From an uncultured bacterium (GTDB lineage: Bacteria > Krumholzibacteriota > Krumholzibacteriia > Krumholzibacteriales > Krumholzibacteriaceae), in contig CBDUYR010000001.1 in NCBI GenBank assembly GCA_965371515.1, forward strand, positions 84,266 through 148,265: DNA of 64,000 nucleotides. Reading direction: 5' to 3'. Below the pieces are notes generated by a model. The model was not told where the DNA came from and searched no databases. It worked only from the letters and a program-made list of their open reading frames with translations. Positions 53,836 to 58,753 of the stretch are shown here, piece after piece; position 1 is the first letter of the stretch, and every line of letters begins with the position of its first letter. The position numbers and the translations under genes were made by a program.

Positions 53836-55506
53836 ATGCCGCGCCTGCGGAAAGCGATCGCGTTGGTCGCAACAACAACATTATTGATAACGTATTGCGG
53901 ATGCGGTGGTGAAGGCGGCGGGAATATGCCTGACAGGCCCGCGGACGGCGGTCGGCTTGTCATCGGGATGCAGCAGGAGCCCGAGATCCTCAACGAGGCC
54001 GTCAACAGCATGGTCGCCGTAGTCTATGTATGCAACCTGTTGTTCAGCAAGTTCGTCAAGCACGATGACTCGATGCGGCTCGTGCCCGATCTGATCACCG
54101 AGATCCCCACAGTGGAGAACGGGGGCATCTCGGCCGACTATCTCGTTTACACCTATCATCTCAGGAAAGACGCACTATGGCATGACGGCACACCGGTGAC
54201 CTCGAAGGACGTGGAGTTCTCGTACCGCGTGATGACCCATCCCGGAATCAACGTCGAGACGAGGCAGGGGTGGGACATTGTCGACAGCGTAGAGACCCCC
54301 GACCCGTACACGGTGATATTCAGGCTCTCCGAAGTATACGCGAACTTCGCCGGCGATTGTTTCTACGACGAGTCGGTCCTTCCCGAGCATCTGCTCTCGG
54401 ATGCGCTGGGCGAGGGATTCCAGGCGCACCCCTTCCACACGGCGCCGGTCGGTTCGGGTCCGTTCGTATTCCACGAGTGGGTCTCCGGCTCGCATATTAC
54501 CGTCAGGGCCAACGGCGATTACTATGGAGACGGTCCCTGCCTCGACGAGATCGTCATCAGATTCGTTCCCGACGGAAACGCGCTCCTCATGCAGCTCGAA
54601 ACAGGTTCGGTCATGGGAATCGACAACGCGCCGGACGAGCTCCTTGCCCTGGCGGACGGCCTGGCGGGAATCAGAGTCTACAGAAACCCGGCCCTCTTCA
54701 ACGAGCATCTCGACGTTAACTGCGAGAACGCAATACTGGCGGACAGGAGGGTGAGGAAGGCGATCGCCGTCGCGATAGACAGGGAAGAAATTTCGGAGAA
54801 GATATACAACAGGGTCTGGATACCGGCGTACAGCGACGAGCATCCCGGCTCCCCCTATCACAACGACTATGGAAGCATGGCGCTCCGGTACGACCCGCCG
54901 GAGGCGCGGCGACTCCTCGCCGAGGCCGGCTGGAAGGATACCGACGGCGACGGCATAAGGGAACGCGGCGGCGAGAGGCTCGAGCTCGAGATAACCTCCA
55001 CGGCGGGAAGGACGAACAGGGAAAGGACCCAGATCGTGCTGCAGAAGCAGCTCGCCGAAGTCGGTATCGACCTGAAGATCAGGAATTATCATCCGACTGT
55101 TCTTTTCGGCAGCTGGGACGATCGCGGAGTGCTGAAGAGGGGGCGGTTCGAACTGGCCCTCTACGCTTTCCTGACGCCTCCCGACCCCTCGACGAAGGAG
55201 GGGAGCTACTCGAGCGATTTTATTCCGCCGAAGGGACAGAACAACTCCAGATTCAGGGACGGGGAACTGACCCGGCTTCTCTCCGAGGGAAGTTCGACGG
55301 TCGGTTTCGAGGAAAGAAAGAAGATATACGACGAGGTCGCCCGCATCCTCGCCGAGGAGCTGCCGGTCATCCCCCTTCTCTGGGTGACCCAGCTCGACGC
55401 GATGCCGGCGGCACTCGAGAACTACAGGCCCAACCCGACTCAGTCGGGCGATACGTGGAATGCCGCGCAGTGGAAGCTGGCGCGTGAGGAGGAAAAGGGA
55501 AGATGA
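53836..55506 (+). CDS. Peptide-type ABC substrate-binding lipoprotein (family 5, AppA-like)
   Basis: Lipobox-like YCGC; IPTVENGGISAD, WHDGTPVTSKDV, GSGPF, DRRVRKAI, AGWKDTDGDGIRE; ATG after AAGGAG. Confidence 0.92.
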   Translation: MPRLRKAIALVATTTLLITYCGCGGEGGGNMPDRPADGGRLVIGMQQEPEILNEAVNSMVAVVYVCNLLFSKFVKHDDSMRLVPDLITEIPTVENGGISADYLVYTYHLRKDALWHDGTPVTSKDVEFSYRVMTHPGINVETRQGWDIVDSVETPDPYTVIFRLSEVYANFAGDCFYDESVLPEHLLSDALGEGFQAHPFHTAPVGSGPFVFHEWVSGSHITVRANGDYYGDGPCLDEIVIRFVPDGNALLMQLETGSVMGIDNAPDELLALADGLAGIRVYRNPALFNEHLDVNCENAILADRRVRKAIAVAIDREEISEKIYNRVWIPAYSDEHPGSPYHNDYGSMALRYDPPEARRLLAEAGWKDTDGDGIRERGGERLELEITSTAGRTNRERTQIVLQKQLAEVGIDLKIRNYHPTVLFGSWDDRGVLKRGRFELALYAFLTPPDPSTKEGSYSSDFIPPKGQNNSRFRDGELTRLLSEGSSTVGFEERKKIYDEVARILAEELPVIPLLWVTQLDAMPAALENYRPNPTQSGDTWNAAQWKLAREEEKGR

Positions 55507-56951
55507 GAGGCTGGCGCAGGTTCCTGACCTTCATAGTCGCGATAGTCCTGGCGATCGCGGCCCTCTATTTTCTCCGCCCCCGGGGCAGGGACGAGGGAGT
55601 GAGCGTGACATTTCTCGGCGGGGCCCGCGAGGTAGGCGGTTCGTGCATACTGGTATCAGGCGGGGGGGTGTCGTTCCTCGTCGACTGCGGCGCGTTCGGT
55701 GACGCCGGGGACGGGATAGTGCCCGATGATCCTTCGGCCGTTTCCTTCATGATCCTTACACACGCGCATTCCGATCACTGCGGGAAGATACCGGAGCTTT
55801 TCGCCGCCGGGTTCGACGGAGAGGTCTACTGCACGCCGGAGACGGCGGAGCTCGTGCCGATAATGCTGAAGATGTCGAGGAGCTTCGACAGGAGCCCGGT
55901 CGGCCGCGACGATTTCGACAGGGCGCTCGCTTCGATGAGGCCCGTTCCCTTCGACGAGGTAAAGACGGCCGGTCCGGTCACCTTCGTTCTGCGGAGGGCG
56001 CAGCACCTGCTCGGCGCCGCATTCGCCGAGGTCGAGATCGATACGGGACACAAAACCTCGAGGATCATCTTCTCGGGCGATCTCGGTTCGGGCGGGGCGA
56101 TACTTCTCCCGCCCCTGGAGAAGCCGGCAGCGGCCGATTACGTCGTCGTGGAGTCGACATACGGCGGCAGGATAAGGGATATCGAACGGAGCGACCTTGA
56201 GACGAGGTATGGAGAGTTCGGCAGGGCGGTAGGCTCCGCCCTCAGATCGGGCGGCGACGTCCTGATCCCGGCCTTCACGCTCGGAAGAACGCAGGAAGTG
56301 ATCGCGGCGCTCGACCTTTTCACCGACAACGGAACGATACCGCCGGGCACCGAGATATATTCCGACAGCCCGACGGCAAAAAAAGTGAGCGACGTTTTCA
56401 GGAACCACCCGGAGAGCCTGTCTGAGACGGCCCACTCGATGTACGGCGGCGACGTACTGAAGAGGACGTACCACAGGGAAGTGCGGAGCAAGACTTCGAT
56501 GAAGGTCCACGGCCGCAAGCACAGGCCGACCGTGTTCATATCATCGAGCGGAGACCTGGCGCATGCGAACTCACCGCGCCACCTGGTCAGGATGGCCGGC
56601 GACAGGCGGAACCTGCTCTGCATCGTCGGATGGCAGTCGTACGGGTCGGTCGGCAGGAAGCTCGCCGAGGGCGACAGCACCGTGCTGGTCAGGTACCGTG
56701 AGGCCGGGGAGACGAAGAAGGTATGGATCTCTCCCGCCCTCGAGGTGAGGAAGTTCAATGCATTCTCGAGCCATGCCGACCAGGATGATCTTGTCCGCTG
56801 GACCGGCTCCATCGATGGGCTCAGGGCGGCCTTTCTCGTCCACGGCGAACCGGATCAGGCCGGGGCCCTGGCTGAGAGGCTGGAAGCGGATCTCGGCATC
56901 GAAACAAAGATACCGGAAGCGGGAGAGACGGTCTTTCTCCCGTCCAGATAG
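55503..56951 (+). CDS. MBL-fold beta-CASP family nuclease with N-terminal membrane anchor
   Basis: GGAREVGGSC, LVDCG, THAHSDH, HLLGA, FSGDLG, ESTYG, PAFTLGRTQE, SSHADQ, VHGE; TM FLTFIVAIVLAIAALYFL. Confidence 0.9.
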   Translation: MRGWRRFLTFIVAIVLAIAALYFLRPRGRDEGVSVTFLGGAREVGGSCILVSGGGVSFLVDCGAFGDAGDGIVPDDPSAVSFMILTHAHSDHCGKIPELFAAGFDGEVYCTPETAELVPIMLKMSRSFDRSPVGRDDFDRALASMRPVPFDEVKTAGPVTFVLRRAQHLLGAAFAEVEIDTGHKTSRIIFSGDLGSGGAILLPPLEKPAAADYVVVESTYGGRIRDIERSDLETRYGEFGRAVGSALRSGGDVLIPAFTLGRTQEVIAALDLFTDNGTIPPGTEIYSDSPTAKKVSDVFRNHPESLSETAHSMYGGDVLKRTYHREVRSKTSMKVHGRKHRPTVFISSSGDLAHANSPRHLVRMAGDRRNLLCIVGWQSYGSVGRKLAEGDSTVLVRYREAGETKKVWISPALEVRKFNAFSSHADQDDLVRWTGSIDGLRAAFLVHGEPDQAGALAERLEADLGIETKIPEAGETVFLPSR

Positions 56952-57950: not shown

Positions 57951-58753
57951 AACGTATGATATTCTGGCCGGCGATAATGCTGGTCCTCATCATCGCCGTC
58001 TCGGCATTCGCGCCGATGCTCAGTCCCTGGCAGCGCGACGCCATCGATCTCGACAGCATCGCCGCGCCCCCTTCGGGGACGCATCCTCTCGGGACCGACA
58101 GTCTGGGCAGGGATGTGATGACGAGGCTTCTTTACGGGGGACGGTTCACACTGATGGTGGCCTTTCTGTCTGTAGCGGTCGCGCTTGCGGTCGGGATCGT
58201 CCTCGGAAGCGCAGCTGGCTGGGTTGGAGGCGCCGCCGACAGGATCGTATCCCTTACGATCGATTTTTTCCTTTCCGTACCGGTATTCCTCGTCATGCTC
58301 GTAGCGGCGTCAGCCGCGGGGGGGAAGATCTGGCTGATCCCCCTGCTGATAGGCGGCACCTCGTGGATGGAGACGGCCAGGATAGTCCGATCGAGGTTCA
58401 GACAGATAAGGGAGGAGGGCTTCGTCGAGGCGGCAAGGGCCGCGGGCGCCAGCGGACCGTGGATCGTGTTCCGGCACATGCTCCCTCAGGCTGCCGGCGC
58501 TGTCCTCGTCGCGGCGACAGCCGGACTGGCAGGCGCGATGCTCGTCGAGAGCGCCCTGAGCTTTCTCGGATTCGGCGTACAGCCTCCCGTGCCCACATGG
58601 GGCAACATGATGCACGGGGCGTGGTTGACGCTGCGCACATCCCCTCTGGCGGCGTTCGCGCCGGGACTGATGATCTTTATCACATGCCTTGGCTTCAATC
58701 TCCTCTGCGAGGGATACAGGCGCGTCCTTGCAAAAGAGCGCGGTTCGGTATAG
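57947..58753 (+). CDS. Peptide ABC permease (OppC-like)
   Basis: HPLGTDSLGRDV, FVEAARAAGAS, ESALSFLGFG, PTWG. Confidence 0.93.
   Translation: MKRMIFWPAIMLVLIIAVSAFAPMLSPWQRDAIDLDSIAAPPSGTHPLGTDSLGRDVMTRLLYGGRFTLMVAFLSVAVALAVGIVLGSAAGWVGGAADRIVSLTIDFFLSVPVFLVMLVAASAAGGKIWLIPLLIGGTSWMETARIVRSRFRQIREEGFVEAARAAGASGPWIVFRHMLPQAAGAVLVAATAGLAGAMLVESALSFLGFGVQPPVPTWGNMMHGAWLTLRTSPLAAFAPGLMIFITCLGFNLLCEGYRRVLAKERGSV

Follow-up and report, generated by a model that had tools for sequence, protein, structure and literature searches.

The window analysed here is a 64,000-nucleotide stretch of DNA from an uncultured bacterium of the order Krumholzibacteriales (assembly GCA_965371515.1, contig CBDUYR010000001.1, positions 84,266 to 148,265 of the forward strand); coordinates refer to the window unless otherwise indicated. 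It contains a cluster of genes for an ATP-binding cassette (ABC) importer, in which a gene coding for a beta-CASP/RMMBL metallo-hydrolase is located between the gene for the substrate-binding protein (SBP) and those for the two permeases. The enzyme belongs to the beta-CASP family and has an intact active site; its N-terminal anchor is conserved among its homologues, the operon structure is maintained across an order, and its nearest relatives outside that order carry export signals. These data point to the existence of an exported subfamily of beta-CASP enzymes, of which the window protein would be the signal-anchored branch. The reading favoured here, with moderate confidence, is that the enzyme is a nuclease of the RNase type which faces the periplasm and is expressed together with the importer, the two forming a scavenging module.

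Comparison of the 482 aa protein with Pfam revealed the Lactamase_B, Beta-Casp and RMMBL domains, all of them exceeding the respective cut-offs (Beta-Casp 69.4 bits versus 27.7, RMMBL 50.8 versus 21.6). In proteins of the metallo-beta-lactamase (MBL) fold, motifs 1 to 4 are Asp, HxHxDH, His and Asp; beta-CASP enzymes have in addition motifs A (Asp or Glu), B (His) and C, the last of which is a His in RNA-type enzymes and is tied to RNA specificity. The preliminary description of this DNA had reported a full set of motifs, and each of them was located: HAHSDH (residues 87-92), H168, D193, ESTYG (217-221), SHAD (423-426) and VHGE (446-449). Residues D61, H87, H89, D91, H92, H168, D193, E217, H424 and H447 do not vary across 30 homologues, and those forming the MBL motifs (D61, H87-A-H89-S-D91-H92, H168 and D193) are also constant in a set of 18 homologues.

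The closest solved chain by sequence is TTHA0252, a stand-alone RNase of Thermus thermophilus (7e-52), chains of which are also the top matches found by Foldseek (E 4e-39, TM-score 0.89 when normalised to the target, 32% identity). The AlphaFold model of the protein has a mean predicted local distance difference test (pLDDT) score of 90.1. E217, H424 and H447 align with the corresponding TTHA0252 residues, and the motif B Ser-x-His and motif C His, positions that were mutated in RNA-bound TTHA0252 structures, are both kept. Scores obtained with the models for aCPSF1 (TIGR03675, 222 bits versus a 580-bit cut-off), type VII Cas14 (NF045584, 221 versus 800 bits) and RNase J (TIGR00649, 22 versus 400 bits) are all far under the cut-offs, and only the shared catalytic core aligns with the first two, to the exclusion of their additional N-terminal KH or C-terminal domains; the enzyme is therefore a beta-CASP protein outside these named families. 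It is predicted to be a zinc-dependent phosphodiesterase of the RNase type. The same genome encodes RNase E/G and RNase Y, and its contig C3 carries the gene for another beta-CASP protein, a soluble one, so that no housekeeping gap is left for the anchored nuclease to fill; for RNase J, a search of the whole genome gave only the weak 22-bit match.

The protein begins with MRGWRR, followed by 18 uncharged residues and then by RPRGRDE. The conservation of this segment was evaluated in 121 sequences, made up of the query and the top 120 homologues (49-95% identical), six of which, either fragments or sequences without the landmark motif, were excluded. All of the 115 analysable sequences have a basic N-terminus and, after it, an uncharged stretch with a median length of 17 aa; the hydrophobic stretch diverges freely in sequence among homologues, its character being kept. 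On these grounds an alternative start at the GTG in position 55605 (MTFLGG..., with GGGAG ahead) was rejected, and translation of the transmembrane (TM) segment, which the preliminary description had left conditional on the absence of such a start, is upheld. In the AlphaFold model residues 2-24 form a helix, 25-29 are disordered and the first strand starts with residue 33; the linker is thus only 8 residues long, and the catalytic domain would sit close to the membrane. Among 77 distant beta-CASP loci from other phyla (about 30% identical), most open reading frames (ORFs) start no more than a few codons from the first strand and none has a convincing anchor of the window type; three of them (L036, L038, L041) show a longer upstream open frame with a hydrophobic stretch.

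According to the positive-inside rule, the more positive flank of a membrane segment stays in the cytoplasm. Net charge is higher on the N-terminal flank in 108 of the 115 sequences (medians +3 and 0 for the N- and C-terminal flanks), and an N-in/C-out topology is therefore predicted. The window protein has an RR pair followed by FLT, only a partial match to a twin-arginine motif, and has no clear AXA site, features which make an anchor more likely than a cleaved signal. AXA-like sites are present right before the domain in some members of the anchored clade, such as ASA↓T and ALA↓E.

Relatives outside the order were identified in a library of 1.84 billion cluster representatives, clustered at 50% identity. 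Seven full-length proteins (P0130, P0131, P0133-P0137), sharing 35-38% identity with the query, rank just under its own cluster and, if a few fragments belonging to that cluster are disregarded, are among the best matches. N-terminal extensions are found on six of these seven proteins and on P0148, located lower in the list. The extensions are either cleavable and Sec-like (...VPAFA↓QEG...) or contain the sequences SRRDFLQ, TRRDFV or TRRQFV, which fit the twin-arginine consensus S/T-R-R-x-F-L-K. Further relatives from metagenomes carry NRREFI, TRRQFL or a very regular ...ALPSWAQA↓ site. In a FastTree tree of 130 sequences, from which the N-terminal columns had been removed and 26 rows excluded for length or for a missing landmark, seven Krumholzibacteriota proteins and seven outside relatives form a clade of 14 members with a Shimodaira-Hasegawa (SH)-like support of 97. 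All 14 members are labelled as exported, and the label needs three changes over the whole tree.

The grouping of exported nearest relatives with the anchored proteins in one supported clade argues for an exported subfamily and makes N-in/C-out the best supported topology. The same orientation had been proposed in the preliminary description, and both the charge bias and the Sec or twin-arginine translocation (Tat) signals of the nearest outside relatives speak for it. Judged from the positive-inside rule and from homology, an extracytoplasmic location of the catalytic domain is considerably more likely than a cytoplasmic one. Searches of the full-text literature found no published description of an exported or membrane-anchored beta-CASP enzyme, in agreement with the earlier statement that no described system with this architecture was known to its author; as far as these searches show, the exported subfamily is previously undescribed. 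A survey of predicted secreted nucleases (PMC11495043) makes no mention of beta-CASP proteins in the passages available.

The genomic neighbourhood of the exported relatives is variable. In six metagenome loci (L146-L149, L152, L153) the gene for a Sec-exported beta-CASP protein lies directly upstream of an operon of the resistance-nodulation-division (RND) efflux type, composed of OEP, CusB-like membrane fusion protein (HlyD_D23) and AcrB genes; in L149 the contig ends after the OEP gene. The metagenome loci represent one lineage, with proteins 74-80% identical to one another and a signal ending in ...AQA, and a divergent PAS-LuxR regulator gene lies on the other side of the beta-CASP gene. 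The same arrangement is found in a Desulfobacterota genome (L228, G273:C11). In these loci a putative periplasmic enzyme of the RNase type heads an RND operon. Near the Tat-type relative of locus L156, PhoX and DUF1501 genes are located a few genes away. In L229 (G357:C168, positions 915-2558, minus strand), from a genome of 36% GC, the beta-CASP protein is provided with a TM helix at its N-terminus and with a Pro/Lys/Glu-rich linker of about 35 residues, and its gene adjoins a type III secretion cluster (FHIPEP, YscX, SycN, TyeA, HrpJ). Members of the subfamily are thus repeatedly found in operons for envelope transport. No SBP gene was found near the exported relatives in the loci examined outside the order. 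As for the origin of these proteins, P0133 used as a query matched two of 301 Desulfobacterota genomes; the L156 relative matched none of 301 sampled Planctomycetota genomes at 1e-75, and a Planctomycetota origin was rejected for it.

The elements of the cluster in the window are reported in Table 1. A putative ribosome-binding site (RBS), GGAAGGAG, precedes the ATG of the SBP gene. The stop codon of this gene and the start of the nuclease gene overlap in an ATGA at 55503-55506, the nuclease stop (56951) is separated by 9 nt from the start of the OppB-like gene (56961), and the permease genes share a 4-nt GTGA overlap at 57947; these junctions all match the preliminary description. A GGAGG-like core of the nuclease RBS is retained in five of six aligned loci from the same genus. 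The four proteins are probably translated from one transcript. A scan for consensus promoters and terminators between 53000 and 60600 returned no promoter-like and three terminator-like sites, no more than in shuffled sequences. The stretch is represented in 19 listed sequencing runs, all of DNA and none of RNA; they are labelled as marine sediment, cold seep, sediment or just metagenome.

Table 1. Features of the importer and nuclease gene cluster. Positions are those of the window.
Feature	Position	Strand	Details
Family-5 (Opp/App/Nik-type) SBP lipoprotein, 556 aa	53836-55506	+	Pfam SBP_bac_5 8e-78; RBS and ATG start
Parts of the SBP			Signal peptide with lipobox Cys23, then Gly-rich tether; folded domain from about residue 38
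Shine-Dalgarno-like sequence GAGGAGGA	55486-55493	+	Within the 3'-terminal part of the SBP gene; 9 nt upstream of the ATG of the nuclease
Beta-CASP/RMMBL metallo-hydrolase gene, 482 aa	55503-56951	+	Pfam Lactamase_B, Beta-Casp, RMMBL
Nuclease residues 1-24, putative signal anchor	55503-55574	+	MRGWRR n-region and 18-residue hydrophobic helix
Nuclease linker, residues 25-32 (RPRGRDEG)	55575-55598	+	pLDDT <50 at 25-29; first strand at 33
Catalytic domain, residues 33-482 and stop codon	55599-56951	+	
OppB/NikB-like ABC permease, 329 aa	56961-57950	+	Pfam BPD_transp_1 and BPD_transp_1_N; best NCBIfam Opp2B
OppC/NikC-like ABC permease, 268 aa	57947-58753	+	GTG start; Pfam BPD_transp_1; best NCBIfam Opp4C
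PP-loop (ThiI/MnmA-like) ATPase with C-terminal NFACT-R_2 RNA-binding domain	58764-59798	+	Pfam NFACT-R_2 5e-26, ThiI, tRNA_Me_trans

Orthologues of the nuclease were found in 38 of the 39 other genomes of the order (31/32, 6/6 and 1/1 in families f1, f2 and f3), and in none of 111 genomes from the other families of the phylum at E <= 1e-60. The order SBP, nuclease, permease B, permease C is maintained, as far as the DNA reaches, in 33/33 loci, which correspond to 31 distinct places, window included, two being duplicates; three loci are cut by contig ends. The preliminary description had raised the possibility of a gene order unique to one genome, which these data dispel, and chance is excluded by the presence of this arrangement in all related loci examined. 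In 17 loci, with starts chosen by a script, the gaps range from -4 to +119 nt before the nuclease and from -4 to +63 nt after it.

Comparison of wider flanks in 23 loci, corresponding to 21 distinct places, revealed a collinear block of about 13 kb: DUF885 <, ResB >, CcsA >, (nitroreductase >), SBP >, nuclease >, permease B >, permease C >, PP-loop >, NUDIX <, PfkB >, Metallophos_2 <, where the signs indicate gene orientation. Since the entire block is syntenic, the gene order was inherited from one ancestor and does not represent independent recurrences. The SBP orthologue group and the nuclease group travel together: the best SBP match in sister families is about 30% identical, with matches at E <= 1e-20 in 4/11 and 13/13 of the genomes searched, and the best 120 database matches of the SBP are all at least 60% identical to it, several of them being located on contigs equal in length to those bearing the best matches of the nuclease.

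Downstream of permease C, the PP-loop/NFACT-R_2 gene follows directly in all of the 23 wide-flank loci, with gaps of about 10-140 nt or with an overlap. Its product may be a part of the functional unit or a tRNA-thiolation enzyme merely sharing the transcript. The genes that come next in the window code for a NUDIX protein (convergent), a PfkB kinase and a Metallophos_2 protein.

The transporter genes encode parts of an importer of the Opp/Dpp/Nik type, i.e. a family-5 SBP and OppB- and OppC-type BPD_transp_1 permeases; the permease C orthologue of locus L005 also carries OppC_N. Cys23 of the SBP is invariant in 18 orthologues, and lipobox-like N-termini are found in its relatives. Among solved chains the best match, aligned end to end, is AppA of Bacillus subtilis, a nonapeptide-binding protein (6e-65), followed by Campylobacter 4oet, deposited as a peptide-binding protein (2e-40). 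NCBIfam scores are below cut-offs both for the SBP (Opp4A 164 versus 650, NikA 118 versus 393) and for the permeases (Opp2B, a nickel model, 271 versus 350; Opp4C 251 versus 350). The cargo cannot be named from these similarities, and a peptide would be the default reading. The AlphaFold model of the SBP has a mean pLDDT of 68, too weak for pocket analysis. Prediction of a complex between SBP residues 36-556 and nuclease residues 30-482 gave scores of 0.00 and 0.00, in a run without controls which allows no verdict.

No ABC ATPase genes are present within the SBP-nuclease-permease cluster of the window, and no ATPase with oligo_HPY was found in the operon in any of the 23 wide-flank loci. The genome, 99.6% complete, contains three family-5 SBP genes, three permease pairs and one OppD/OppF pair, located about 63 kb upstream (G000:C1:74968-76904) beside another permease pair. 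With no ATPases in the operon and a single OppD/OppF pair in the genome, sharing of ATPases must be assumed. The region around that pair (G000:C1:73111-76904) consists of a permease pair and the OppD/OppF pair, with no SBP among the ORFs listed upstream. A second family-5 SBP gene with two permease-sized ORFs, also devoid of ATPase genes, lies in the window at 22364-25777 (+), and one ATPase pair apparently serves three permease sets.

According to the favoured reading, an uncleaved N-terminal signal anchor (N-in/C-out) would hold the nuclease at the outer face of the cytoplasmic membrane, only about 8 residues separating the helix from the catalytic domain. Nuclease, lipoprotein SBP and two Opp/App-type permeases would be made from one transcript, and the importer would borrow the sole OppD/OppF ATPase pair of the genome. 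The enzyme would then cut, beside the importer, RNA or other single-stranded nucleic acid reaching the periplasm, and in these marine-sediment heterotrophs nuclease and importer would form one scavenging operon. Within this reading, it is possible, if rather doubtful, that the cargo of the importer is the product of the enzyme, and a link leading from RNA through the SBP to import is not supported. It is unlikely that the operon represents a dedicated oligonucleotide uptake system, in which the anchored RNase would trim RNA, a re-tuned AppA-like SBP would bind the fragments, the Opp permeases would import them, and the PP-loop/NFACT-R, NUDIX, PfkB and Metallophos_2 proteins would process the cargo in the cytoplasm.

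Several observations weigh against the scavenging module. The synteny has a single origin and includes unrelated genes such as ResB and CcsA, so that adjacency is weak evidence of coupling, and the SBP resembles a peptide binder, AppA. The neighbours of the exported relatives (RND efflux, PhoX, type III secretion) are unrelated and include no common partner; the subfamily is associated with the envelope without a constant partner, which weakens the idea that it exists to feed an importer. The export labels on the tree were assigned by a heuristic developed for this analysis, and the tree was obtained by FastTree only. As for the window protein, it has no clear cleavage site, and in this genus three Arg (RPRGR) lie in the C-terminal flank, an unfavourable feature for Sec export. 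In locus L087 (G134:C4), SBP and nuclease are contained in a single frame of 1047 aa, which, if real, would leave them on different sides of the membrane. The fusion is found in 1/33 loci and in one assembly, and results from one extra base towards the 3' end of the SBP gene, at about 1467-1501 (about 55470-55503 in the window); the internal ATG and RBS of the nuclease are kept, and the insertion is probably an assembly indel.

Long open frames had been flagged in three genomes (G134, G149 and G068). G134 and G149 were inspected and only G134 contains a true in-frame join; the frame of G149 (L113) is an open non-SBP frame and was rejected as a fusion. In locus L129 (G091:C7, 4863-7769), the SBP frame remains open for 968 codons and covers, in another frame, a large part of the nuclease gene; this may reflect either the loss of a stop codon or a frame open by chance at high GC.

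The place of an exported nuclease in the operon could also be a frozen accident, the importer being of an ordinary peptide (AppA-like) type or of a nickel/metallophore type, and the enzyme serving for clearing of, or defence against, periplasmic nucleic acid, for turnover of extracellular nucleic acid or for phosphate release. This is rather unlikely. The solved chains nearest to the SBP (AppA, then 4oet) and the NCBIfam models matched by the transporter (Opp4A/NikA for the SBP, nickel and Opp4 models for the permeases) are what would be expected of such an importer, exported relatives do occur without an SBP and beside other genes, and the whole 13-kb neighbourhood, unrelated genes included, is syntenic in the order. 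In every locus, nevertheless, the nuclease gene is flanked by those for the SBP and the permeases, its junctions with them overlapping or very short, and SBP group and nuclease co-occur, neither having a close orthologue in the sister families. Moreover, the anchored clade resides in the importer operon, whereas the nearest outside relatives are of the Sec or Tat type with no SBP nearby, a contrast qualified by the L229 protein, another anchored form in a different context.

The opposite topology, N-out/C-in, would make the protein a tethered RNase facing the cytoplasm, similar to RNase Y, which could act on membrane-proximal mRNAs or regulate the transporter from inside. Most beta-CASP enzymes are indeed cytoplasmic RNases and none of the 77 distant homologues has a convincing export signal; the downstream PP-loop/NFACT-R_2 protein is of a cytoplasmic RNA-binding type, and both the three Arg after the helix and the single frame of L087, if real, would fit. 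The charge bias seen in 108 of the 115 sequences, the Sec or Tat signals of the closest outside relatives, joined to the anchored group in a supported clade, and the AXA-like sites found before the domain in some members all point outwards; RNase Y and RNase E/G are already encoded by the genome, and the L087 fusion stems from a single inserted base in one locus of 33. A cytoplasm-facing enzyme is accordingly considered distinctly unlikely. Least probable, and held to be very improbable, is that the exported domain acts on a phosphodiester or ester other than nucleic acid, such as a precursor of the importer cargo, or takes part in periplasmic handling of zinc or other metals. Nickel/cobalt models are the best matches of the permeases, relatives head the OEP/HlyD_D23 (CusB-like)/AcrB operon, and the MBL fold can support varied chemistries. 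The beta-CASP and RMMBL motifs, Ser-x-His and motif C His included, are however complete and invariant, and we know of no beta-CASP member with a substrate other than nucleic acid.

The nuclease shares with TTHA0252 the domain order (MBL, beta-CASP insert, RMMBL tail), the catalytic His/Asp set and the Ser-x-His of motif B. TTHA0252, however, begins directly at the first strand and is cytoplasmic, whereas the window protein has 32 extra N-terminal residues, predicted to form a membrane helix, and belongs to a clade with export signals. From the exported beta-CASP proteins of that clade (the P0130-like Desulfobacterota proteins and the Tat-type P0134, P0137 and P0148), to which it is related by 35-38% identity in the catalytic domain, it differs in having an anchor instead of a cleavable Sec or twin-arginine signal, and an SBP gene nearby. 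The importer part resembles the App system of B. subtilis (AppA, AppB/C, AppD/F), in that the SBP aligns with AppA and is followed by OppB/OppC-type permeases; the operon of the window, however, has no ATPase genes, contains a nuclease gene between SBP and permeases, and encodes components which all remain under the equivalog cut-offs.

Ribonuclease-family enzymes located at the cytoplasmic membrane are represented by RNase Y, through a single N-terminal helix, and by RNase E, through an amphipathic helix; both face the cytoplasm and take part in mRNA decay. Their folds are different, and the charge bias and the relatives of the window protein point outwards instead. Nucleases tied to a transport machine at the membrane or in the periplasm are exemplified by the MBL domain of ComEC and by pneumococcal EndA. 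Compared by description, the ComEC domain lacks the beta-CASP insert and forms part of a polytopic channel, EndA differs in fold, and neither works with an SBP-dependent ABC importer. EndA is described as localised at the membrane surface and as needed for genetic transformation (PMC3729463).

Outside the cluster, an ORF of 416 aa at 62743-63993 (+) contains a Dermatopontin (DERM) domain (Pfam 8e-38), which is known chiefly from animal matrix proteins. The ORF lies within the last 2 kb of the contig, where the GC content drops from about 0.61 to 0.41-0.48, and could belong to a foreign island or result from an assembly mis-join.

Beta-CASP enzymes, such as CPSF73, RNase J, Artemis and TTHA0252, are regarded as intracellular processors of nucleic acids. 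A branch of the family provided with Sec, Tat or signal-anchor sequences would bring RNase-type chemistry into the periplasm, the anchored form being fixed inside an ABC importer operon in one uncultured marine-sediment order. If the enzyme does not feed the importer, an exported beta-CASP protein raises the question of which RNA or DNA is cut outside the cytoplasm. If it does, the operon would be the first example of an SBP-dependent pathway by which fragments of nucleic acid are taken up, and would offer sediment heterotrophs a new way to use necromass.

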